From a bacterium (GTDB lineage Bacteria > UBA8248 > JACPRG01 > G963555815): a DNA stretch of 64,000 nucleotides. The notes beneath the pieces were generated by a model, which had not been told where the DNA came from, searched no databases, and was given only the letters and a program-made list of their open reading frames with translations. The stretch spans positions 1,536,001-1,600,000 of the forward strand of contig CBDHDG010000006.1 of NCBI GenBank assembly GCA_965261595.1. Direction: 5' to 3'. The number at the start of each line of letters is the position of its first letter. Within the stretch, counting starts at the first letter, position 1. Below are positions 1 through 62,984 of this stretch, piece by piece. Made by a program: the position numbers and the translations under genes.

Positions 1-1281
1 CCGGGGAGCTGGTTCGCGAGTTCGAGTGTTCCGCTTCGGCGATTCGCAACTGGGTACGTCAGGCCGATCGGGACGAAGGCCGTCGTGAGGATGGTCTGAC
101 AAGCGCCGAGCTTGAGGAGCTGCGACGGCTTCGTCGAGAGGTTCGTCAGCTTCGCGAAGAACGCGAGATACTGGCAAAAGCTACGGCTTGGTTCGCTCGG
201 GAGACCGGCTCGGTCCGGGCGAAGTCCTCGAGCTCGTGAAGGCGAATCAGGCCCATCATCGGGTGGCCACGATGTGCCGGGTGCTGGGCGTCTCCCCCAG
301 CGGGTACTACGCGTGGCGAGGCCGTGGGCGTTGTCCTCGTGCGAAGCGCGAGGAGGCGTTGCGTGGCACGATCCGGGCCATCCACGAGGTATCTGGTGGC
401 ACCTACGGGGCGCCTCGGGTCCATGCCGAGCTGATGGCCGGCGGCTGCCGGGTGAGCCGCAAACGGGTGGCTCGTCTGATGTGCGAGGCAGGGTTGGCCG
501 GGGTGAGCCGACGCCGAGGCATGCGCACTACGCGCGTGGACCAGAGCCATTGTGTGGTCCCGGACCGGGTCGAACGCCAGTTCCAGGCCGATGCGCCGGA
601 TCGGCTTTGGGTGGCCGACGTGACCTACGTGCCGACCTGGACGGGGTTCGTGTACCTGGCCATCGTGCTCGACGTGTTCAGCCGCCGGGTGGTGGGATGG
701 TCCATGACCCACCATCTTCGTACCGAACTGGTGCTCGGGGCGCTGAACATGGCGTTGGGACAGCGCCGGCCCGAAGGGGTCGTGCATCATTCCGACCAGG
801 GCTCGCAGTACACCTCGCTCGCCTTTGGCAAACGGTGCCGGGAGATGGGGGTGGTTCCCTCGACCGGGTCGGCCGGGGATTGCTTCGACAACGCCATGGC
901 CGAGAGCTTCTTTGCCACGCTGGAGTGTGAACTCATCGACCGGCGTTCGTTCCATACCCAGGCCCAGGCGCGCATGGCGATCTTCCAATTCATCGAAGGC
1001 TGGTACAACCCACGCCGCCGGCACTCCGCCCTGGGTTACCTCAGCCCCAACGACTTCGAACGCACCGCGGCGAAGGCAACGCCACGTGCGGTGCGCAACG
1101 CTCATCGTCCGGCTCGAGGCGTCCCCGGCGCTTCCCAGAGCGGCGAGCCAAAGGGAAAAACATACCCTCCGGGGGGACCCCATCGATCGGTCTTGGGTAA
1201 GACTGTACGTCCACCGGCTGTCGCTCACCTCAGGGCTGGGGACGACAGCCATAAACTGTCCACGAAAGCGGGGTAAATCCA
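1..1281 (+). mobile_element. IS3-family element (5' end outside the window): orfA to 239, orfB GTG 236..1276
   Basis: orfB has WVADVTY, HHSDQGSQY and DNAMAESFF (DDE). The right end GTCCACGAAAGCGGGGTAAATCCA (ends 1281) is an imperfect inverted match to the left end of the sister copy at 43872. Confidence 0.93.
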
Positions 1282-1474
1282 TCCCAAGAAGACAAGGGAC
1301 AGATCAAGACGATTGGACGATCAATACTCTCTGGGCATGGATGGCCCTATGGGTTGTGTTCCCAACGGCATCATCAGGTCCGTCTACACCGTATACGAAA
1401 CGATCGAGCGGCTCGACCCAGCGCATGATCAGGGAAACTCACAGTGACGCCAAGTACAATTGGCCCACACCTAA

Positions 1475-15409: not shown

Positions 15410-17613
15410 ATGGTCGATCAAACATCGTTGAACCAAGCGTGGGGCGCACTGCGCGTCGTGCTCAGGGAGGCCTTCTCGTTCTATGAGATCAAGGATCTCG
15501 CCGGATTGGCCGGCATCGACGTCACTCGGCTGGCCCGTCTTGAACAGAAGGCCGGCGGCGGCGCATCAAAGCGTCAACTCATGACCGCATTGGATCGCGA
15601 GATCGCCCAGCTCGGCCATGCAGACAAGGCGCGCGTGCTGAACCATTTCGCGGAAGAGGTCGTTCGCCAGCCGCACTACGAGAGCGAGCGCCTCGACGAC
15701 TATCTTGAACGATTGGGCTGGCAGTTCGCGGATGGGAAACTGGTTCCGATCAACGTGTTCGACGTCGCCGAACTCGCCAACCTGCCCGATGTATCGAAGA
15801 CCGATTTGCTGAAGGCGGCCACCCGCCTTCGCGACGGCGACTTGAGCGGTGCGCTGGGCGCAGCCTGCGCAGCCGTGGACTCGGCAACCAATGCCGTCTA
15901 TGCGGACCACCGCCTCGGCCCGGAACCTGCCATCGAAAGACAGCTTCCAGACGCGCTGCACGAAGGCGCTCAACGCCAAGAAAACCATTTCACGATTGCC
16001 CGGCGAGCTGACCGGCATGGGGTGGAGCGCAGCCGACGCCAAGATGCTCTCGGACAATCTGCGCGGCGCCCTGAACCAGGGCGCCTATCCCCCGCTCTAG
16101 GGTTTTGTTGGACACTCGATTGATCCATGATTCATGGAGAAAGGGGTGTCGCGATGAACGAACAAAAGCAAGAGGGGGCTTTGGCGGAGGGCGCCCGCAG
16201 GGCGAACGGAGCCAAGGCCCCAGGGCATCGCAGTGAGCGGGGTCGGTTCTCCTGCCAGCGCAAGCGGGAGGCGGTCCTGCGTCTTTTGCGGGGCGAGAGC
16301 CTGGAGACGCTCTGCCGCGAGTTGGGCACGACAGCGGTTCGGCTTTCCGCCTGGCGCGAGGCGTTCCTTCGCGGGGGCGAGGCGGCGCTCAAAGCCCGCC
16401 CGGCGGATGAGCGGGACGAGGAGAACGCCCGGCTCAAGGCCAAGGTGGGCGAACTCACGATGGAGGGCGAGGTCCTGCGGGAGAAGATCGACCGCCTGGA
16501 GGCCGGCCGCCCTTTAGCCGGCAGGAGGTGGAGGCGATGAGTCAGGCCCGCTTCACCTCCACGGGCAGAGCCTACGGCCTGAAGCGGGTGTGCGCCCTTT
16601 GGGGCTTGGCGCGCTCCACGGTCTACGCGCAACGGCGGCGAGAGGCGGTCCCCGTTCATGAACGCCCCACGCCCAATAAGCGCGGCCCTGTAGGCCCGTG
16701 CACCGATGCGGAACTCCTCGGCCACATCCGGCAGGTCCTGGAGGACTCTCCCTTCCATGGCGAGGGCTACCGCAAGGTGTGGGCGAGGCTGCGCTTCACG
16801 GGCATCCGCACCAGCAAGGAGCGGGTGCGTCGCCTGATGCGGGAGGCGGGGCTTCAGGCCCCCCACCGGGTGGGCAAACCCCGAGGTCCCAAGGCCCACA
16901 ACGGGACCATCCGCACCGAGCGGCCAGACCGAATGTGGGGCACGCACATGACGACGACGGTGACCACCGAGGAGGGGATGGCCTCGGTGTTCGTGGCGGT
17001 GGATCACTGCTCGGTGGACTGCGTGGGGATCCATGCGGCCAAGAGCGGCAACCGCTTCGAGGCCCTGGAGCCGATCCGGCAGGGGGTCGCCGAGCGCTTC
17101 GCCGGCTTGGAGGCGGACGTCGCCGAGGGGCTTAAAGTTCGTCACGACCACGGCCCCGCCTATCTGTCCGATGACTTTCAGCGGGAGATCGCCTACCTGG
17201 GCATGACCAGTTCGCCCAGCTTCGTGCGGGCGCCCGAGGGAAATGGCTACTGTGAGTGGTTTATCCGCATCTTGAAGGAGAATCTCCTGTGGGTGCGCTC
17301 TTTCGCCACCGTAGAGGAACTGCGGTGGGCGCTGCTTGAGTTCAAGAACCTGTACAACCATCATTGGATTCTCGAGGGCTACGGCTACCGAACGCCGGCC
17401 CAGGCAAGGCAGGAAAAACTCGCTCAAGTTGCGGAGGCCGCATGAGGTCGAATACCCTCACCCGAGTGTCCAATAACCCAGGGGCGGTCCACCTACGTCA
17501 TGCAAGCGCTCCGTTCGAGAATGAGCGACGTCCACGCTTCCAAACCCGTGCTGAACCCCCTGGTCTACGACTCTCTCAAGTGGGCAGCGCTCATCGTGCG
17601 CATGTTGAAATAG
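15410..17613 (+). pseudogene. Abi/HEPN-like protein, frameshifted (~15930) and split by IS3
   Basis: Removing the IS and one CCTA copy restores ALNQGAYVMQALRSRMSDVH...RMLK*, containing an Rx4-6H motif. Confidence 0.6.
16088..17491 (+). mobile_element. IS3-family element, copy 1 of 4 (1404 bp, TSD CCTA; first catalytic D>H)
   Basis: orfA 16154-16540 and orfB 16537-17445 overlap by ATGA. Ends are TCCCCCGCTCTAGGG...GGGGCGGTCCA. orfB reads WGTH. Confidence 0.95.
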
Positions 17614-30031: not shown

Positions 30032-32480
30032 ATGAGGCCTTCGAGTCTTTTTTCTCTCTTCCGGAGCGTGGAAAGCGGGATGTGTTCGAGGCGGCCGCGA
30101 GCCGCCTCGATACGTTGCCCAGCTACGTAGAGAAGGACTTCTGGGGGTTGTCTTGTCCTCGATGCGCTCTACAACCGGCTGCCCGGCGGGCATCCGAAAT
30201 TGCTCTTCAAGGGTGGGACGTCACTTTCCAAAGCCTTCGGTCTCATTCGACGGTTCTCGGAAGATATCGATCTCGTCGTCCATCGTGACGACCTTGGTTT
30301 CGCAGGCGACCGCGATCCGGCCGTAGCATGCAATCTGTCGAACGGGAAGCGGGCCGCCCTGTTCAAGGAACTCGGCGCGGCGTGCAGCAGCTACATTCTT
30401 GGAGATCTGGCCACCGCTTTGGCGACGCTGTTCGGGGAGATGACGGAGGGGTGCCGCGTCGACCCGGATAGGGATGATGTCGACGGACAGACGATCTTCA
30501 TCGAGTACTCCACGCTGTATTCGAGGGACGATATGGCCTACGTGGTCCCGCGTGTGAGGATTGAGGCGGGAGCAAGGTCGGCGCTGGACCCCAATTTGAC
30601 CTGCTCGCTTGCTCCGTACGTCGCAGAGGAATTACCCAACTGGTCCTTTGACGTGGATGACGTCAGGGTTATGGCGCCGGAGCGCACCTATTGGGAGAAG
30701 CTGCTGATCCTGCACGGGGCGCACCATGGATACCTAGACACGCAACGTCTGCCGGCTGACAGGGACCGGATCTCGCGCCACTACTACGACGCCGCGATGA
30801 TCACGTCGACCGATCTCGGCAGGTCCGCCTTGTCGAACATCGACCTGCTGGACATGGTTCGGAACCACAACCTCGTCGCCTTCCGGCAGGCTTGGAAGCG
30901 GTTCGAAGAGGCCATTCCCGGATCGGTGAGACTGGTTCCGCAAGCGGAACTGCGTACGGTGATTGAACGGGATTACGGGGCCATGCAAAGCATGATCTCC
31001 CCCGCTCTAGGGTTTTGTTGGACACTCGATTGATCCATGATTCATGGAGAAAGGGGTGTCGCGATGAACGAACAAAAGCAAGAGGGGGCTTTGGCGGAGG
31101 GCGCCCGTAGGGCGAACGGAGCCAAGGCCCCAGGGCATCGCAGTGAGCGGGGTCGGTTCTCCTGCCAGCGCAAGCGGGAGGCGGTCCTGCGTCTTTTGCG
31201 GGGCGAGAGCCTGGAGACGCTCTGCCGCGAGTTGGGCACGACAGCGGCTCGGCTTTCCGCCTGGCGCGAGGCGTTCCTTCGCGGGGGCGAGGCGGCGCTC
31301 AAAGCCCGCCCGGCGGATGAGCGGGACGAGGAGAACGCCCGGCTCAAGGCCAAGGTGGGCGAACTCACGATGGAGGGCGAGGTCCTGCGGGAGAAGATCG
31401 ACCGCCTGGAGGCCGGCCGCCCTTTAGCCGGCAGGAGGTGGAGGCGATGAGTCAGGCCCGCTTCACCTCCACGGGCAGAGCCTACGGCCTGAAGCGGGTG
31501 TGCGCCCTTTGGGGCTTGGCGCGCTCCACGGTCTACGCGCAACGGCGGCGAGAGGCGGTCCCCGTTCATGAACGCCCCACGCCCAATAAGCGCGGCCCTG
31601 TGGGCCCGTGCACCGATGCGGAACTCCTCGGCCACATCCGGCAGGTCCTGGAGGACTCTCCCTTCCATGGCGAGGGCTACCGCAAGGTGTGGGCGAGGCT
31701 GCGCTTCGCGGGCATCCGCACCAGCAAGGAGCGGGTGCGTCGCCTGATGCGGGAGGCGGGGCTTCAGGCCCCCCACCGGGTGGGCAAACCCCGAGGTCCC
31801 AAGGCCCACAACGGAACCATCCGCACCGAGCGGCCCGACCGAATGTGGGGCACGGACATGACGACGACGGTGACCACCGAGGAGGGGATGGCCTCGGTGT
31901 TCGTGGCGGTGGATCACTGCTCGGTGGACTGCGTGGGGATCCATGCGGCCAAGAGCGGCAACCGCTTCGAGGCCCTGGAGCCGATCCGGCAGGGGGTCGC
32001 CGAGCGCTTCGCCGGCTTGGAGGCGGACGTCGCCGAGGGGCTTAAAGTTCGTCACGACCACGGCCCCGCCTATCTGTCCGATGACTTTCAGCGGGAGATC
32101 GCCTACCTGGGCATGACCAGTTCGCCCAGCTTCGTGCGGGCGCCCGAGGGAAATGGCTACTGTGAGTGGTTCATCCGCATCTTGAAGGAGAATCTCCTGT
32201 GGGTGCGCTCTTTCGCCACCGTAGAGGAACTGCGGTGGGCGCTGCTTGAGTTCAAGAACCTGTACAACCATCATTGGATTCTCGAGGGCTACGGCTACCG
32301 AACGCCGGCCCAGGCAAGGCAGGAAAAACTCGCTCAAGTTGCGGAGGCCGCATGAGGTCGAATACCCTCACCCGAGTGTCCAATAACCCAGGGGCGGTCC
32401 AGATCCTTGGCGAGGTCCCGGAGTTCGGATGGGTCATGGAACAGCTTCAGCGTGCCGAAGCCGCGATTAACCCGGCCTAA
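30028..32480 (+). pseudogene. AbiEii nucleotidyltransferase toxin, frameshifted (~30145) and IS-interrupted
   Basis: VEKDFW, LFKGGTSLSK, RFSEDID, ERTYWEK and SRHYYD. The tail MILGEVPEFGWVMEQL...* resumes after the IS. Confidence 0.9.
30998..32401 (+). mobile_element. IS3-family element, copy 2 (TSD GATC; intact WGTD)
   Basis: Near-identical to copy 1; GATC at 30994-30997 and 32402-32405. Confidence 0.95.
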
Positions 32481-39271: not shown

Positions 39272-41000
39272 GTCCGCCGCATTGATAGATAGCGTAATCA
39301 AGGGATATCCGGTCGGTACTTTCATCTTTTAGGAGACGAGGGACTCCCCCGCTCTAGGGTTTTGTTGGACACTCGATTGATCCATGATTCATGGAGAAAG
39401 GGGTGTCGCGATGAACGAACAAAAGCAAGAGGGGGCTTTGGCGGAGGGCGCCCGTAGGGCGAACGGAGCCAAGGCCCCAGGGCATCGCAGTGAGCGGGGT
39501 CGGTTCTCCTGCCAGCGCAAGCGGGAGGCGGTCCTGCGTCTTTTGCGGGGCGAGAGCCTGGAGACGCTCTGCCGCGAGTTGGGCACGACAGCGGCTCGGC
39601 TTTCCGCCTGGCGCGAGGCGTTCCTTCGCGGGGGCGAGGCGGCGCTCAAAGCTCGCCCGGCGGATGAGCGGGCCGAGGAGAACGCCCGGCTCAAGGCCAA
39701 GGTGGGCGAACTCACGATGGAGGGCGAGGTCCTGCGGGAGAAGATCGACCGCCTGGAGGCCGGCCGCCCTTTAGCCGGCAGGAGGTGGAGGCGATGAGTC
39801 AGGCCCGCTTCACCTCCACGGGCAGAGCCTACGGCCTGAAGCGGGTGTGCGCCCTTTGGGGCTTGGCGCGCTCCACGGTCTACGCGCAACGGCGGCGAGA
39901 GGCGGTCCCCGTTCATGAACGCCCCACGCCCAATAAGCGCGGCCCTGTGGGCCCGTGCACCGATGCGGAACTCCTCGGCCACATCCGGCAGGTCCTGGAG
40001 GACTCTCCCTTCCATGGCGAGGGCTACCGCAAGGTGTGGGCGAGGCTGCGCTTCGCGGGCATCCGCACCAGCAAGGAGCGGGTGCGTCGCCTGATGCGGG
40101 AGGCGGGGCTTCAGGCCCCCCACCGGGTGGGCAAACCCCGAGGTCCCAAGGCCCACAACGGGACCATCCGCACCGAGCGGCCCGACCGAATGTGGGGCAC
40201 GGACATGACGACGACGGTGACCACCGAGGAGGGGATGGCCTCGGTGTTCGTGGCGGTGGATCACTGCTCGGTGGACTGCGTGGGGATCCATGCGGCCAAG
40301 AGCGGCAACCGCTTCGAGGCCCTGGAGCCGATCCGGCAGGGGGTCGCCGAGCGCTTCGCCGGCTTGGAGGCGGACGTCGCCGAGGGGCTTAAAGTTCGTC
40401 ACGACCACGGCCCCGCCTATCTGTCCGATGACTTTCAGCGGGAGATCGCCTACCTGGGCATGACCAGTTCGCCCAGCTTCGTGCGGGCGCCCGAGGGAAA
40501 TGGCTACTGTGAGTGGTTCATCCGCATCTTGAAGGAGAATCTCCTGTGGGTGCGCTCTTTCGCCACCGTAGAGGAACTGCGGTGGGCGCTGCTTGAGTTC
40601 AAGAACCTGTACAACCATCATTGGATTCTCGAGGGCTACGGCTACCGAACGCCGGCCCAGGCAAGGCAGGAAAAACTCGCTCAAGTTGCGGAGGCCGCAT
40701 GAGGTCGAATACCCTCACCCGAGTGTCCAATAACCCAGGGGCGGTCCAGGACCGTCTACGCAGCGTGCGCGATCTCGGTAACCAGGAACTGCCACCGCCG
40801 AAAGATGGCGAAGCCGTATCCTTTGTCCTGGACGGACAGCAACGCCTTACCAGTCTGTTCGCAACGCTTCATGGCCTCAAGATCGAGCGTGACTCCGGAC
40901 AGCGGGATGATTTTTCAGGAATCTACGTCGACCTTAATGCCAAGGAAGACGAACAGATCGTCATCATGGATATCGAGGGCCGTGACGAGCGCACTTTCAT
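39272..41000 (+). pseudogene. DUF262 (GmrS/ParB-like) fragment split by IS3 copy 3
   Basis: LIDSVIKGYPVGTFIF*ETRD | RLRSVRDLG...VLDGQQRLTSL. Confidence 0.8.
39345..40748 (+). mobile_element. IS3-family element, copy 3 (TSD GGAC; intact WGTD)
   Basis: GGAC at 39341-39344 and 40749-40752. Confidence 0.95.
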
Positions 41001-41387
41001 CCCCTCGGACACACAAAAGCGGGGGGCCCAGCTACACCACGGTCTCATCTCAACCGACCCAGGTCACGACGGTCTCCCACCCCCTGCTCTTCCCCACAGA
41101 CTTCATGGACCTACGATACCGAAGGCAGCCTACACCTTCCTCCCAACTCAGAAACAAGACAAAAAGTCAGTAGGGACCATCCTCTTCGCCTGTCGGCTCG
41201 TTCTATATTATCCAGAGTATCCGATTGCGCGGTTCGGCGAGTGCCTATCCCGTCGGGGCCTTGCGTGAATATCTTCCAGGCAATTCGCACCCGTCCGAGT
41301 TTTCATTCTGCCTCTGGTTTCTGCTTATGCGGCATCCATTTTGCCTATTTCGTCTTTTGGCGATAATACCGTTCCCTTCGGAAAACG

Positions 41388-41720
41388 TCATTTTGCGGCA
41401 GGATGAAACACAATGTCGGTGAAATCACAGCCCGCCAGCAGTTTTTTAAGCGCATCCGCTTCCTTTCGGTCTATGGTGAGATCCCATTTGCGGCGCACCT
41501 GAACAATCCGATTGGCAAACCAGCACTTGTTCTTCTCCGGCATCCATTCGGCGGCATCCTTCCCGCACTTACCAATGGGCGAGCACCGGTTCACCTTCGG
41601 GGAGGCAAGTGTAAGGTTATCGAGGTCACGAGCGAATTGCTTGCGGGTTGTCTCGTCCGCAGCGCACAAGCCACTGTCGTGGGCCTCGAGGTGGCCACGA
41701 TGTGTTCGATATCCATCTGC
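41388..41720 (-). pseudogene. DUF1524/HNH-type endonuclease C-terminal fragment, truncated by IS21
   Basis: MDIEHIVA, FARDLDNLTLA, VNR, KDAAEWMP and KWDLTID. Confidence 0.72.
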
Positions 41721-42754
41721 TGGTCAACGCCAACTATTTTTCCCGTTGGCGACAATTAAAAGTTCCGTTTTGGGACCCTGGACGCTGGGTCTGAGAACTT
41801 GAATGCTCCTGTTGTTGAGCCAGTGGGTATGTGGGGAACGGCATAGCAGGTGTCCCACCTATCCACAGGCTGTGCGACGCGAGAGAGAACACCTCGTGTC
41901 CCCTGCGGTCTCCACCGGACCGGCGCACAGGGCATCGGCGACGGCCAGACGCCGCGGGCGTTGCGGTCTTCACTCGTCCCATCGTGCGGTCAAGACTCAT
42001 CGGGCTTGGCGTCCTTCTTGCCGCGTCCGGACCGGGTGCGCTGGTGCGCCGCCTCGGCTCGATAGCTCTTGACGTTGAGTTCGAGGATCACCGAGTGGTG
42101 TACGACCCGGTCGATCGCGGCGGCGGTCATCGGGTCCTGGAAGATCTGGTCCCACTTTGAGAACACCAGGTTGGAGGTGATCGCGACGCTGCGCCGCTCG
42201 TAACGTTCGGCGAGCAGGGCGAACAGCACCTCCATCTCGCCGCGGTCGTGCTGCACGTAGCCGATATCGTCCAGGATGTGGCACTCGATGCGGTCGAGCC
42301 GGCGCAGCTCCCGGCTCAGGCGAAGATCGCGCTTTGCTTCGAGCAGCCGTTCGACCAAGGCCGAGACCGGGGTGAAGAGCACCGAATGGCCCTGGCGCAC
42401 CAGCTCATGACCGAGGGCGGAGACTACATGGGTCTTGCCCGTGCCCGGATTGCCGAATACGCACAGGTTCGTGGCTCCTTCGAGAAACTGCCCCTCGGCC
42501 AGACGCGCGACCTGGGTGCGTACCGGCGCGGGGAAGCGTCCGCTATCCAGCGTCGCCATCGTCTTGTCGCGCGCGAGCTTCGATTCGGTCATCAGTCGCG
42601 CGATCCGCCGCTCGGCGCGCTCGAGCGCCTCCACCGTCGCGAGTTCGTCGAGGTAATGCGTGTGGCTCCAGCCCCCCTTGGCCGCCTGGTCGGCAAGCGG
42701 CGCATAGTGGGCGAGGAACGAAGGCAGCCGGAAGGCCTTGGGCCAGGCTCTCAT
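41721..42754 (-). mobile_element. istB: IS21-family right part with the IstB ATPase (41990..42754, N-terminus replaced)
   Basis: GNPGTGKTH, ILDDIGY, ITSN and IDRVVHH; end ...GTTGGCGTTGACCA at 41721. No istA. Confidence 0.88.
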
Positions 42755-42946
42755 CAGGTCACGATGTCGGTCGAGGTCGGAACCTCAACCGGTTGCCCCT
42801 GGGTGGCCGACAAGTCAAGGGAACGACACCACGGTCAATCAGAGTGTGGGTCAAGCCACCCTGGGGCGGCCGGCCCTACAAGCCTAAATGCGTTACTCGC
42901 GGTACGGGTCAGACCACCTCAGGTAACCGGCCCTCACATACTCACT
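42745..42946 (-). ncRNA. Orphan structured segment resembling an IS110 left end / bridge-RNA target loop
   Basis: Stem 42850-42867 pairs with 42795-42811 and encloses CACTCTGAT-hairpin-TTCCCTTGA; the segment abuts the IS3 HSD codons. Confidence 0.55.
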
Positions 42947-43872
42947 GTCGGAGTGATGTACGACCCCGTCGGGGCGGCGCTGTCCCAACGCCATGTTCAG
43001 CGCCCCGAGCACCAGTTCGGTGCGAAGATGATGGGCCATCGACCATCCCACCACCCGGCGGATGAACACGTCGAGCACGATGGCCAGGTACACGAACCCC
43101 GCCCAGGTCGGCACGTAGGTGATGTCGGCCACCCAGATTCGGTCCGGCCCATCGGCCTGGAACTGGCGTTCGACCCGGTCCGGGACCACACAATGGCTCT
43201 GGTCCACGCGCGTAGTGCGCATGCCTCGGCGTCGGCTCACCCCGGCCAAGCCCGCCTCGCGCATCAGACGAGCCACCCGATTGCGGCTCACCCGGCAGCC
43301 GCCGGCCATCAGCTCGGCATGAACCCGAGGCGCCCCGTAGGTGCCACCAGATGCCTCGTGGATGGCCCGTATCGTGCCCCCCAACACCTCGTCGCGCTTC
43401 GCACGAGGAGAACGCCCACGGCCTCGCCACGCGTAGTACCCGCTGGGGGAGACGCCCAGCACCCGGCACATCGTGGCCACCCGATGATGGGCCTGATTCG
43501 CCTTCACGAGCTCGAGGACTTCGCCCGGACCGAGCCGGTCTCCCGAGCGAACCAAACCGTAGCTTTTGCCAGTATCTCGCGTTCTTCGCGAAGCTGACGA
43601 TTGTCCCGACGAAGCCGCCGTAGCTCCTCGAGCTCTGAGCTTGTCAGACCGTCCTCACGACGGCCCTCGTCGCGGTCGGCCTGGCGGACCCAGTTGCGAA
43701 TCGCCGAAGCGGAACACTCGAACTCCCGCGCCAGCTCCCCGGGCGTACGGCCCGAGCGAACCAGCTCAACCATCTGGCGCCGGTATTCCGGCGCGTAGGG
43801 TGAATGAGTTTTCGGCATCTGAACACCTCCTCCGCACAGTCTCAAGGTGTCCACAAAAACGGGTCAACTCCA
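42947..43872 (-). mobile_element. IS3-family element (sister of 1..1281), truncated right after HHSD
   Basis: orfA 43818..43504; left end TGGAGTTGACCCGTTTTTGTGGACAC; closely similar to the first element. Confidence 0.92.
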
Positions 43873-45697
43873 TCACCAGGCCCCCGGGAATGCGCGCCAT
43901 CTTCTTGTAGGCGCTGTAGCGGTCGCAGACGATGACCGTATGGAGGCCGGCCGTTCCGAACAGCTTCCTCGCGACCTCCGCACCGCGCGAGGGGTCAACG
44001 TGGAAGTAGACCGCGTCCTCGCTGACCGAGGTCCACAGCCAAGCCCGGCTTGAGCGGCTCTCCTCGCGAAGCGACTGCACGCGCCAGGTAGTCTCATCAC
44101 CATGGCGCACCGCCGCCTCGTTCTGGCGGGCGAGGATCGCGGCAGCCACCGGCTCGAACAGCGGCGCGATACGGCGCGCGCTGTCGCCCAGCGTCCCCGG
44201 CGAGATAGGAAGCCCCTGGCCGGACAGCCACGAGGCGACCCGGCGCAGGGGACGCCGACACTTCGGTGGGTGAGGACGCGCAGTCGCACCTCCGGCGCCA
44301 TCGCGGACGGCGGATGACGCGTTTGTGAGCCGAGACTTCGATCTCGACGATGGTGGAGACCTCGGCGCCGTTGGCCACGTAGGGCTTCCCGCATCGGCCA
44401 CAGACGCATGCCTCGGCCGGCGGATTGCGCTCTTCCGTCCTCTCCTCGAGCGCGGGCCGCAGGGTGCGGCCATGCCCGGCGGCTCCGGGCTGCCGGCCGC
44501 GCCGGCGCTCAGAGCGCGGCCTCTCCTGCTGTTCGCTCCTGCGCCCGAACAGCGCCTTCGACAGCACCGCCCCGCTCGCACGAAGCTTCGCAAGCTGCGC
44601 TTCCAGCGTCTCGTTCCGGCTCTGCGATGCATTCACGGCTTTGCACAGCCGGGCGTTCTCCCTGGATAGGGACCTGAGCGCCGTCTTCTGGCGGCGCGAC
44701 CTCCCCAGGGCCTTGCGCAGTTCAGCGTCCTCACGCGACGGCGACCTCGACCGCGCCGCCTCGCTCGCGCGCAAAAGCCGGGCCTTCAGCCGCTCCTTCG
44801 CGGCCCCGGCGACTTCCAGGGCGACCCCCAGACGGTAGACCTCCCCGGACAACGACTTGACCGCCTCCGCCTGGTCGCGCAATCGCCCCAACTCCGCATG
44901 GAGCCCAATGACCTCGCGGCCCTGCCACCTGATGGTCTCCTTGTCGGTGTCCGACGCCTGCGCCTCCCGGGCCAGCCGGTCCTCCAGCCGGGCGACTTCC
45001 CTGGTCAGCCGGACCGCCTCCTTGCGCAGCCGGGCGGCCTCCCCCGACGGCGACGCGCCCGAGCGGCCCCCGGCCGACTTGACCCTGGCTTCCGACAGGA
45101 GCTTCTCCAGACGCGCCACTTCCGCCTTCAACGATAGGGCGTCTCTCGCCGCGCGGCGGACTTCCTTCGTCTCCTCGACGGCCGCTTCCAGCTTCCTCCG
45201 GCAGGTGTCGAGCTGCCACTTCAGCGAACCCGCCCGGCCGCGGGAATCCACCTCCGCCCACCGCAACTCCTTGCAGCGCGCCTCCGCCCGCGCCCGCACG
45301 CGCTTGAACAGCGAACGCCAGTCCGGCGCCCTGCATGAGGACGTCTTGGGGGGAAGAGGCCATCGGACATCTGGCCTCTCGACCAACGAAAGTTCCGCTT
45401 GAGCAACTTCTGCGCGAATCGTCATGTCGACATGAATACCACATGCCGAATCGCGTTACCAGTGTCTTGGGAAGATTCCATCCAATGTAGACGATGCTTC
45501 CAACGCTGTGCCCATCACGGCCCGGCCGAACGGTTACCAACAGGGACTCGCCGAGATGCGCAGGAGTTTTAACGAATCCGCTTTCATTTTGATTACGGAC
45601 TGCAGAAGGCAGGTTTCGAATGAGATTGGAAATTATGTATATTCTCAATAATATCAATAGTATAATAGGATCTCACGGCTGGAAAGAACGGCTTTAC
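43873..45697 (-). mobile_element. Left part of an IS66-like transposon; TnpC pseudogene (45425..43873) with a long coiled-coil N-terminus
   Basis: LFGRRSEQ, RGRQPGAAGHGR, CGRCG, HGDETTW and VCDRYSAY; outer end GTAAAGCCGTTC. Confidence 0.85.
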
Positions 45698-46148: not shown

Positions 46149-47569
46149 TCATACCGGCGCCCGCCGGCTGATCCAGTTTGTGACCTCCAGGTCCTTCAGG
46201 AAGATTTCGCCCTCGCCCTGGGGGGCGGTTCGCTCAAGCCGCTCGCGCTCTTCCAGCCGAAAGGTCGACGGGCGGCAGGCGTCGATGCCGATCTTGCCCC
46301 CGACCCGCTGCCAGCGGGCCCCCGGGGGCGCGACCTGGGGCAGGGCGACATCCATCGGGTGGTTTCGGGTCCCCCGGATGGGGTGGACGTCGGTGTCCGG
46401 GTTGAAGCGCGTCCCGATGGCCCACAGAATCTCTTCCGGCTTGTGGATGTCCACGTCCTCGTCGACGGCGATGGCCACCTTGGGAGGGAGGTACGCGCTG
46501 CTGAGCGCCCCCATCAGGACGTTGACCACCTGCCCCTCATAATGCGGGGTCATCCGGATCAGGATCACGAACTGGCCGCCGTACGGAGCGCAGTGGACAT
46601 CGTGGACGTCCGAGAATCCCTCCACCTCGCGCAGGCGCTCATAGAGATGGGCCTCCATCGGAAGGCCGTTGAGGGACTGGTGCTCGACGAAGTTGGTGGA
46701 CTGGCAGTGGCGGTAGATGGGATCGCTACGCAGGGTGATGGCCGAAACCTCGAAGACCGGGTTGTCCCCGGTCCCGGAAGCGTAGGAGCATTGGAACTCC
46801 CCGAACGGCCCCTCGGCCTTCCTCACACCGGACAGAAGCTTGCCTTCGATGACGATTTCCGCGCGGGCCGGGGCCACGAGGTCCACCGTCTCGCACCGGA
46901 CCATGGGGACGGGGGATTCCAGCAACGCCCCGCCAGCTCGAACTCGTCCACGCCGTAGGGGACGGTCCAGTTCGTGGCCACGTCCAGCAGCGGATGATGG
47001 CCGATGGGGACCGCCATGGGCATGTCCTCTCCGGCCGCCTCGTACTGCTCGAAATGCCGGTAGGTGTGGCGCGGGACGAGGAGCATCCCCGTGTGATTCC
47101 TGTCCTGAACCTCCATCCGCAGCATGGCCAGGTTCCCGATCCCCGTCTCCAGATCCCGGGTGTAGTTCATCCCGGCGCCGATGGTGATGTTCCCGTCCTT
47201 CCTAGAGTGTTTGACGATGGGGAGACGGTTGAGATCGACGTCGTCTCCTGTCAGGATCACCTCTTTGCACGGCCCGTCGTCAACGATTTCGAAGGGGACA
47301 AGCCCCTTGCGATAGCGCCGGACCAGCTCCGGCACGACGTCCTCCGGCTCGCAGCCCAGGGCGAGGGCCTGGGTCGTCCGCTTTGTCAGGAGCTCGCCGC
47401 AGACCCGCCAGTCTTCAAAGCCCCTGACATTCTCGAAGAGGATGGGCCGATCCGTCTGGTCGAAAAGGGTCCCCATCTCGGCGGCGGGATCAACGGGCGA
47501 GTGGACGACCCGCAACAGGTCGTTGGCCTCCAATTCGTCCAGGAATGTCCTGAGGTCTTTCTCCGGCAT
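46149..47569 (-). pseudogene. UbiD-family decarboxylase, frameshift near 46925
   Basis: DLRTFLDELE, LFENV, AEIVIEG, EGPFGEF, VDEDVDI, WAIGTR and GKIGIDA. Confidence 0.9.
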
Positions 47570-60874: not shown

Positions 60875-62984
60875 CTAGCCTTCTGGAAATTCCAGCTTTC
60901 TCGTCCGAAAGAACAGAATCTCTTCTCTTGGCGGAACCACAATCGGTTCGTAGGCCGGATTCAGCGGTTGTCCCCCGCTCTAGGGTTTTGTTGGACACTC
61001 GATTGATCCATGATTCATGGAGAAAGGGGTGTCGCGATGAACGAACAAAAGCAAGAGGGGGCTTTGGCGGAGGGCGCCCGCAGGGCGAACGGAGCCAAGG
61101 CCCCAGGGCATCGCAGTGAGCGGGGTCGGTTCTCCTGCCAGCGCAAGCGGGAGGCGGTCCTGCGTCTTTTGCGGGGCGAGAGCCTGGAGACGCTCTGCCG
61201 CGAGTTGGGCACGACAGCGGCTCGGCTTTCCGCCTGGCGCGAGGCGTTCCTTCGCGGGGGCGAGGCGGCGCTCAAAGCCCGCCCGGCGGATGAGCGGGAC
61301 GAGGAGAACGCCCGGCTCAAGGCCAAGGTGGGCGAACTCACGATGGAGGGCGAGGTCCTGCGGGAGAAGATCGACCGCCTGGAGGCCGGCCGCCCTTTAG
61401 CCGGCAGGAGGTGGAGGCGATGAGTCAGGCCCGCTTCACCTCCACGGGCAGAGCCTACGGCCTGAAGCGGGTGTGCGCCCTTTGGGGCTTGGCGCGCTCC
61501 ACGGTCTACGCGCAACGGCGGCGAGAGGCGGTCCCCGTTCATGAACGCCCCACGCCCAATAAGCGCGGCCCTGTGGGCCCGTGCACCGATGCGGAACTCC
61601 TCGGCCACATCCGGCAGGTCCTGGAGGACTCTCCCTTCCATGGCGAGGGCTACCGCAAGGTGTGGGCGAGGCTGCGCTTCGCGGGCATCCGCACCAGCAA
61701 GGAGCGGGTGCGTCGCCTGATGCGGGAGGCGGGGCTTCAGGCCCCCCACCGGGTGGGCAAACCCCGAGGTCCCAAGGCCCACAACGGGACCATCCGCACC
61801 GAGCGGCCCGACCGAATGTGGGGCACGCACATGACGACGACGGTGACCACCGAGGAGGGGATGGCCTCGGTGTTCGTGGCGGTGGATCACTGCTCGGTGG
61901 ACTGCGTGGGGATCCATGCGGCCAAGAGCGGCAACCGCTTCGAGGCCCTGGAGCCGATCCGGCAGGGGGTCGCCGAGCGCTTCGCCGGCTTGGAGGCGGA
62001 CGTCGCCGAGGGGCTTAAAGTTCGTCACGACCACGGCCCCGCCTATCTGTCCGATGACTTTCAGCGGGAGATCGCCTACCTGGGCATGACCAGTTCGCCC
62101 AGCTTCGTGCGGGCGCCCGAGGGAAATGGCTACTGTGAGTGGTTTATCCGCATCTTGAAGGAGAATCTCCTGTGGGTGCGCTCTTTCGCCACCGTAGAGG
62201 AACTGCGGTGGGCGCTGCTTGAGTTCAAGAACCTGTACAACCATCATTGGATTCTCGAGGGCTACGGCTACCGAACGCCGGCCCAGGCAAGGCAGGAAAA
62301 ACTCGCTCAAGTTGCGGAGGCCGCATGAGGTCGAATACCCTCACCCGAGTGTCCAATAACCCAGGGGCGGTCCAGTTGGAGAATTATTTGGCCGTTCTCT
62401 TTCCTGTATTTTTTTACGGTTACTCCTTCATCACCCCACTTACATACGACAGTATTTCCAATCTCCACATCCTTATTGGGTTTGACCAACAAAAGCTCAC
62501 CTTCTTGAATCGACTCGTTATCTTTATCGCCTTTCATGCTCTCCCCAGCAGCGATGACACAAAATGCGTTACGATCGTCAATGAAAATCCATGCATGTTG
62601 CTCAGCAACTCCGGTAGGATAGTCTAAGTCTGTAGTTTCTAGTATGTGCCCGCATTGCGCCTTGTTCAAAACCGGCACACTCCAAGGTCGCTTCTTGCCG
62701 TCACTCAACCGAAACCTGTCATATTCCTCTAGTCCCCAACCCCCGCCCGCATCTGTCGAACCATCAGCTTTATGTACACCGTCAGCTCTCTGTGCCAGGA
62801 GTTCGCTTATATCGACGCCCAACTCATCCGCAATGCGGGCCAAATCCCTTGGAAACGGAATGGCCTTGCCTAACTCTATTCCTTCCAAAACAACCAGAGG
62901 AATTTTTGTCTTGCGAGAGAATGTCCGCAAATCCACGCCCTGAACCTCTCGCAAGTGGCGAATCCTTGAACCAAAGTTCATCAT
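60875..62984 (-). pseudogene. XRE-HTH + S24 (LexA/CI-like) repressor split by IS3 copy 4
   Basis: FGSRIRHLRE, AAGESM and VTVKKY. Removing the IS restores IILQPLNPAYEPIVV...PEG*. Confidence 0.87.
60971..62374 (+). mobile_element. IS3-family element, copy 4 (TSD GTTG; D>H)
   Basis: GTTG at 60967-60970 and 62375-62378; orfB reads WGTH. Confidence 0.95.

Follow-up and report, generated by a model that had tools for sequence, protein, structure and literature searches.

A probable truncated IS110 left end at the catalytic codons of an IS3 transposase gene, and the target preference of its relatives

IS1383 and IS4321/IS5075 are IS110/IS1111-type elements that insert into other mobile elements, and IS621 targets REP-type sequences. 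ISEc21, as described by Siddiquee et al. (2024, Nat Commun 15:5235, PMC11187229), is directed to the second D codon in transposases of the IS3 family, and the same target is described there for ISMch6, in terms of a natural redirection of ISEc21. In their experiments, both the formation of circles and transposition required the RNA encoded upstream of the transposase gene; this RNA purified together with the transposase and proved reprogrammable. Guide strand rules are given by Durrant et al. (2024, Nature 630:984, PMC11208160). Among the sources found, including a 2026 bioRxiv survey available in part, the IS3 target was reported only by Siddiquee et al. A preliminary description of the locus treated here had proposed an RNA-guided IS110-type element directed at the active-site codons of IS3 transposases. 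This inference is right but not new, since the principle is already published. The homology of the locus, its exact junction, the complementarity of guide and flank and the family-wide target preference are established here; RNA guidance is taken from the published experiments on ISEc21.

The disrupted IS3 gene and the stump

The stretch of DNA that was analysed (the window) is 64,000 nucleotides long, and its relevant features are collected in Table 1. An IS3-family orfB is cut off directly after its second catalytic Asp codon. DNA homology between this IS3 copy and its sister copy (94%) breaks off exactly at 42947/796; past the break point the sister orfB reads CAG GGC TCG CAG TAC (QGSQY), and it is the only C-terminal half of orfB in the window, the QG half of the disrupted gene being gone. 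At the junction the two elements meet as GAC/AGT (42947/42946), and the stump that follows has the same orientation as the IS3 orfAB.

A family profile HMM was built from 100 unique left ends of related IS110 elements, among the matches listed. With this profile, nhmmer gave a single match in the window, at 42946-42744 (E 3e-20, profile 1-205 of 305). The match begins at position 1 of the profile, which is the first base of the element with its terminal AGT, and the stump thus covers about 203 nt from the start of the non-coding region at the left end. Sensitive blastn against plasmids matched the stump to DNA ~130 nt upstream of the IS110-family transposase gene of ISMch6, located on plasmid pCMU01 of Methylorubrum extorquens CM4, and also to Neorhizobium galegae, in which the matching DNA has a truncated integrase-core gene on one side and an IS110 transposase gene on the other. 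Identity to the nearest relatives found is only ~71%, and the parent element is not among them. A 191-nt stretch of the stump folds with z = -2.8 against shuffles. The profile match and the homology to DNA upstream of IS110-family recombinase genes support the view, already taken in the preliminary description, that 42946-42744 is the left end of an IS110-type element, probably a truncated one of the ISEc21/ISMch6 group.

The rest of such an element was not found in the window. No IS110 recombinase gene was detected in the 64 kb by tblastn with the ISMch6 recombinase, in agreement with the earlier description, and the right end (...AGAAGGGCGTC) is absent, as there is no second family-profile match in the window. 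In the place of the recombinase gene stands an IS21 istB, and the window thus holds a fragment and not an element. Rfam returned no match at gathering score over the whole window, including no bridge-RNA family, and below gathering score the interval 42650-43050 yielded only asR3 at chance level (E 2.3).

Table 1. Features of the window that bear on the IS3/IS110 junction, with the coordinates and evidence for each
Feature	Coordinates	Strand	Evidence or remark
IS3-family orfA (HTH_Tnp_1), disrupted copy	43504..43854	-	Pfam PF01527, E 1.2e-08; 93% identity to sister copy
IS3-family orfB, N-terminal part (HTH_21 and first 2/3 of rve)	42947..43555	-	Pfam rve, E 2.7e-14, profile 3-74 of 102
End of orfB remnant (...VVHHSD)	42958-42947	-	CAT CAC TCC GAC; second catalytic Asp codon, 42949-42947, is the last IS3 codon
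Probable left-end non-coding region (bridge RNA / seekRNA gene), ISEc21/ISMch6-group IS110 element	42744..42946	-	nhmmer; blastn to ISMch6 and relatives
Element terminus (AGTG...) and 5' stem-loop	42868..42946	-	alignment A2; fold
Terminus to be expected in the intact parent element			AGTGAGTATG...
Position of the family's upstream guide-like 9-mer	42904-42896	-	reads TACCGCGAG; degenerate, 5/9 to flank
Target-binding loop	42795..42867	-	stem covariation; guide vs own flank
Target-loop stem	42867-42850 with 42811-42795	-	16 pairs, one A.A mismatch, one bulged T
Left target guide	42846-42838	-	CACTCTGAT
GAC/GTC mini-hairpin	42836-42834 with 42827-42825	-	3 bp
Right target guide region	42824-42814	-	TTCCCTTGA at 42823-42815
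Conserved inter-loop hairpin	42768..42791 (arms 42791-42782 with 42777-42768)	-	helix 3; kept in all full-length relatives, among the matches listed
Donor-loop 5' stem (GTGAC) and decayed left donor guide	42744..42762	-	nhmmer alignment; family homology stops here
IS21-family istB ORF, 254 aa, chimeric start	41990..42754	-	Pfam IstB_IS21, E 5.8e-56, from residue 6
Sister IS3 copy	1..1300	+	~94% identity; runs off window start
Intact, unoccupied target in sister copy	785-802	+	CAT CAT TCC GAC / CAG GGC
Another rve-type IS, four copies	16528-17445, 31438-32355, 39785-40702, 61411-62328	+	305-aa HTH_21 + rve ORF in each
IS66-type DDE fragment, GmrSD fragments, split UbiD gene	43766-44632 (-), 40621-41268 (+), 41388-41669 (-), 46149-47569 (-)		

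The end of orfB after HHSD, the stem, the guides and the hairpins had all been called on the minus strand by the preliminary description, and each was recovered where it had been placed. The structure was examined in an alignment (A2) of 77 family left ends, among the matches listed. Over the 77 rows, 95.4% of the cells in the canonical helices are paired, compared with 90.5 +/- 0.3% in shuffles (0 of 500 reach the observed value), and pairing drops to 37-45% when the partners are slid. Cells changed on both sides number 113, against 36.8 in shuffles that ignore the relatedness of the left ends; such compensatory changes support the predicted target-loop stem. Helix 3 (columns 198-202 with 208-212) is 96.8% paired. 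This second hairpin had been taken for a collapsed donor loop, a reading that has to be given up, because the hairpin is conserved between both loops in all full-length relatives among the matches listed.

The donor guides had been described as absent. That is correct for the right donor guide, which is missing from the stump together with the remaining donor loop by both the profile match and the alignment; the donor stem and a decayed left donor guide remain, the latter reading GATGAGAGCCTG where the family consensus is AGAAGGGCCTG. The blastn alignments to three relatives (L045, L054 and L055) extend to 42741. Across the family, RNAalifold also draws a pair between the right donor guide and base 4 of the element end, a C-G pair in 42 rows and an A-U pair in 34, as the complementarity of guide and donor leads one to expect.

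The left guide of the stump agrees with its own flank at 7 of 9 positions, and both mismatches place a guide U opposite a target C, which is compatible with U.G pairing. In the register common to the family, the reverse complement of the right guide opens with TC, the two bases with which the element's right end finishes, and then runs into the start of the right flank. Read in this way, the right guide of the stump gives TC+AAGGG, a 4/5 match to the CAGGG expected from the sister copy, with which alone it is comparable, its own right flank being lost. The TC-plus-right-flank register replaces the simple joining of both guides into H-S-D-Q-G by which the target had originally been read, and with it the junction that had seemed one base off falls into place.

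Target preference among relatives

Relatives were collected by a scan of one genome per species with a pattern derived from the conserved donor loop, which yielded at least 120 stretches, with long flanks for at least 80. There were at least 127 pattern matches, at least 116 of them with at least 262 nt upstream; seven were dropped, one for a run of N (L022) and six for a misplaced end or a guide that was not found (L025, L040, L050, L075, L084 and L096), and the remaining 109 gave 105 unique junctions. All scan counts describe a sample of the relatives, namely those among the matches listed.

The left flank ends in an Asp codon at 101 of the 105 junctions among the matches listed, and the flanking motif is HSD in 49, NTD in 33, NSD in five, HAD in five and another in 13. 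Right flanks begin with QGSQ in 20 and with RGSQ in 10 of 55 among the matches listed. When flanks of at least 150 nt were compared by tblastn with the sister OrfB, same-strand IS3 homology was found in 57 of 71 left flanks and in 33 of 50 right flanks, again among the matches listed; the alignments end at D203 in 28 cases and begin at Q204 in 27. ISMch6 is flanked by ...LLHHSD/QGSQYTSEAF and the Neorhizobium copy by ...FNTD/QGSQFTSMDF, so in each case an IS3-family orfB is interrupted between the same two codons as in the window. Full-length relatives among the matches listed carry the IS110 recombinase gene downstream and the halves of IS3 orfB as flanks, split after the second catalytic Asp, which bears out the targeting of IS3 active-site codons proposed in the preliminary description.

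Guides and flanks vary together. Among the matches listed, the left guide matches its own flank at a mean of 6.69 of 9 positions; when guides and flanks are shuffled against each other the mean is 6.00 and does not exceed 6.33 in 1000 shuffles. For the right guide the mean is 3.65 of 5, compared with 3.34 (maximum 3.56). The left guide as originally called lies where the bottom-strand match of the ISEc21 seekRNA was mapped by experiment. In the ISEc21 copy this guide is identical to its flank at 9 of 9 positions, and the right guide, once reverse-complemented, gives TC+CAGGGCAG next to a flank of CAGGGCAG. The covariation of guide and flank, taken together with the ISEc21 literature, argues for the RNA-guided reading, biology that is already in print.

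It had been suggested that U in the guide at third-codon positions would tolerate C in the target by wobble. This applies to the Asp codon, for which guide position 9 is U at 95 of the 105 junctions among the matches listed with targets almost evenly divided (C 52, T 53), a pattern that fits acceptance of both Asp codons. It does not extend to the other two third positions, guide positions 3 and 6, which are mostly C (86 and 79 of the 105, among the matches listed).

The group is spread over Alpha-, Beta- and Gammaproteobacteria and Actinomycetota; relatives turn up in 1333 plasmid records and, among 5426 complete E. coli genomes, in 615. Compared with the stump, this survey tells more: the targets are codons that an IS3 transposase can change only synonymously, the guides follow the codon variants HSD, NTD, NSD and HAD among the matches listed, and in at least one lineage the target is now a different conserved motif of an IS gene.

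Several further observations were made on the relatives. A copy on a Microvirga lotononidis plasmid (L004; junctions 1205/1206 and 2590/2591) occupies a site outside orfB and splits a gene for HTH_Tnp_1 (IS3/IS66-type OrfA) on the antisense strand, at Pfam profile positions 25/26. Its guides are altered to fit (CACGCTGAT vs flank CAGGCTGAC; CGAGG vs CGTGG), and the record contains eight tblastn matches to the recombinase. At the right junctions of L014, L041 and L078 (also L062, L016 and L081), AGT... or other non-IS3 sequence replaces CAGGG/CGNGG, which could reflect a tandem second left end or secondary rearrangement. In a subgroup on Actinomycetota contigs (L021, L050, L052, L061, L076 and L079), the right guide region is longer by one base (CGAAGG). 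No other terminus resembles the window's AGTGAGTATGTGAGGG as much as that of this subgroup, AGTAAGTATGTGAGGT, yet blastn ranks Methylobacterium copies closest overall. IS3-borne copies are all co-oriented with orfAB at the family junctions among the matches listed, because the target is asymmetric, so that transcription from the IS3 promoter could continue through the guide RNA and recombinase gene of an inserted element.

A candidate second guide

In 71 of the 97 junctions from which both 9-mers could be extracted, among the matches listed, the 5' stem-loop contains a second guide-like 9-mer upstream of the target loop (A2 columns 28-63, left ends L001-L126). Both 9-mers stand in the same context, CTGAC-yC before and CGACC after. 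The upstream one usually spells another codon version, such as AACACCGAT (N-T-D), CACAGCGAT (H-S-D with Ser AGC) or CACGCCGAT (H-A-D), with CACTCCGAT in the loop. Sixty-six junctions have 9-mers at least 2 nt apart, and among these matches the flank is nearer to the upstream 9-mer in 36 and to the loop 9-mer in 30, with no ties. The better of the two matches the flank at 7.48 of 9 positions among the matches listed, compared with 6.80 in shuffles that ignore relatedness and host effects (0 of 2000 reach the observed value). Elements with a single guide match their flank at 7.54, and in dual elements the loop guide scores 6.41, the upstream guide 6.61 and the best of two 7.52, all among the matches listed. 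Both target classes are occupied by 10 of the 14 IS types that have at least two junctions among the matches listed.

A structural basis for a second guide can also be drawn. The 3' strand of the target-loop stem has a second possible partner in the strand 5' of the upstream 9-mer, and the alternative stem formed in this way is paired at 94.2% in 54 A2 rows with the 9-mer vs 64.2% in 22 rows that lack it (among the matches listed). Over 77 rows among the matches listed, pairing is 87.7%, compared with 84.4 +/- 0.4% in shuffles and 26-53% when the strands are slid. Cells changed on both sides number 53 vs 24.9, with the qualification that the shuffles ignore relatedness and that the strands concerned are paralogous. 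In forced folds, the alternative conformer has an energy equal to or lower than that of the canonical one in five of the six dual elements folded, and is much worse in ISEc21, whose left end lacks an upstream guide-like 9-mer in the alignment.

On these comparisons, we tentatively suggest that in most members of the group, ISEc21 not being one of them, a single RNA may offer a choice of two left target guides, the second of which would be present in the stump in decayed form; we regard this as possible and fall somewhat short of thinking it probable. The RNA would switch between two conformers, so that either left guide could be presented with the one right guide. A literature search largely at the level of titles and passages found no report of a second guide. 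If the proposal is true, IS3 transposase genes of two codon classes would lie open to attack by one element. A functional upstream guide would make a natural two-address bridge RNA, with a bearing on IS-versus-IS conflict and on bridge-recombinase engineering.

Origin of the relic and comparison with known systems

The locus is very probably the product of an IS110 insertion into IS3 orfB that was later rearranged and left a relic. Elements of the group excise as circles, and the RNA of the left end (bridge RNA / seekRNA) binds the DEDD recombinase. [quoted passage not shown] An ISEc21/ISMch6-group element would once have entered this IS3 between the second catalytic Asp codon and the next Gln codon, without target duplication, splitting the DDE triad of the IS3 transposase. 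A later rearrangement would then have cut the left end short at about nt 203, with loss of the remaining donor loop, the recombinase gene, the element's right end and the 3' half of the IS3, and joined the stump to an IS21 istB short of about 12 codons. We infer this order of events.

The join can be placed rather closely. Codons 1-5 of the istB ORF belong to the IS110 left end, and IstB homology starts at residue 6 (~42739); among the plasmid tblastn matches listed, seven of eight start at residue 6 and the rest later. An IstB homologue of 60% identity has 12 residues before that point and an istA upstream, and the istB in the window is without about 12 codons, with neither istA nor an IS21 left end accompanying the ORF in the window. 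Since IstB homology begins at residue 6 and all frames before it contain stops, the stump is fused to a piece of IS21 at about 42744-42739.

The stump is most likely an inert relic amid IS fragments today. It could instead be a working orphan guide, transcribed by read-through from the IS3 orfAB promoter and with its target loop loaded in trans by an ISEc21-group recombinase encoded elsewhere in the genome, so that it would influence how intact copies move. Its target loop is structurally complete, it is co-oriented with the IS3 orfAB, and target-loop RNA of 58-74 nt supplied in trans supports ISEc21 transposition according to Siddiquee et al. (PMC11187229). Against these points stand the absence of a recombinase gene from the 64 kb window, a right guide mismatched to the usual CAGGG of the family, the degeneration of both the upstream 9-mer and the left donor guide, and a setting that is a pile of IS fragments, and we consider such activity improbable. 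That the ~200 bp are IS21 DNA (the istA 3' end with the istA-istB junction) or the end of a group II intron or IS30 element, with a coincidental likeness to IS110, is scarcely credible: istB does adjoin the stump directly and a TGA/ATG overlap typical of istA-istB junctions lies at 42756-42752, but an istA 3' end was rejected on the stops in all three frames of 42962-42740 and on IS21 DNA matches confined to istB (protein matches begin only at residue 6), the IS110 profile spans the whole stump, and Rfam gave neither a group II intron nor any other family at gathering score, so that the group II intron and IS21 alternatives named in the preliminary description were not borne out.

The region around the stump is, to judge from its sequence, a dump of IS debris. 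Nearby lie an IS66 fragment, a UbiD-family gene broken into two overlapping ORFs, and pieces of the N- and C-terminal parts of GmrSD, one on each strand. The window also contains four copies of another rve-type IS, in each of which a 431-aa ORF without a Pfam match overlaps on the opposite strand. The second-Asp region of these four copies reads RHDHGPAY instead of HSDQG, and they are therefore not targets of the ISEc21/ISMch6 group.

An IS110 relic in IS3 orfB would be a molecular fossil of one IS disabling another, and by itself adds little; its place among known elements is as follows. IS1383 and IS4321/IS5075 likewise have their targets inside other transposable elements, but these are terminal inverted repeats and not coding codons. 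The bridge RNA of IS621 has the two loops in which a left guide pairs with the bottom strand and a right guide with the top strand, for both target and donor (PMC11208160). IS621 itself belongs to a different subgroup and has a different target, and its CT core is common to both sides, whereas junctions of the ISEc21 group are without duplicated bases, both in Siddiquee et al. (PMC11187229) and at the junctions compared here. With ISEc21, an IS110 element of E. coli, the locus shares the layout of the upstream non-coding RNA, which has one loop for the target and one for the donor, insertion after the second D codon of an IS3-family orfB without duplication, and donor-loop and right-end motifs conserved in the group. 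It differs in the left guide, which is CACAGCGAT (Ser AGC) in ISEc21 and CACTCTGAT (Ser TCT) in the window, in being a stump without the recombinase gene, and in the position of an upstream 9-mer that ISEc21 lacks. ISMch6 is among the nearest DNA relatives found (71% identity over 164 nt), has the identical left guide CACTCTGAT and sits in HHSD/QGSQY; unlike the stump, it is complete at 1379 bp, its upstream 9-mer is intact (CACAGCGAT), and its right guide gives CGGGG where the window has AAGGG.
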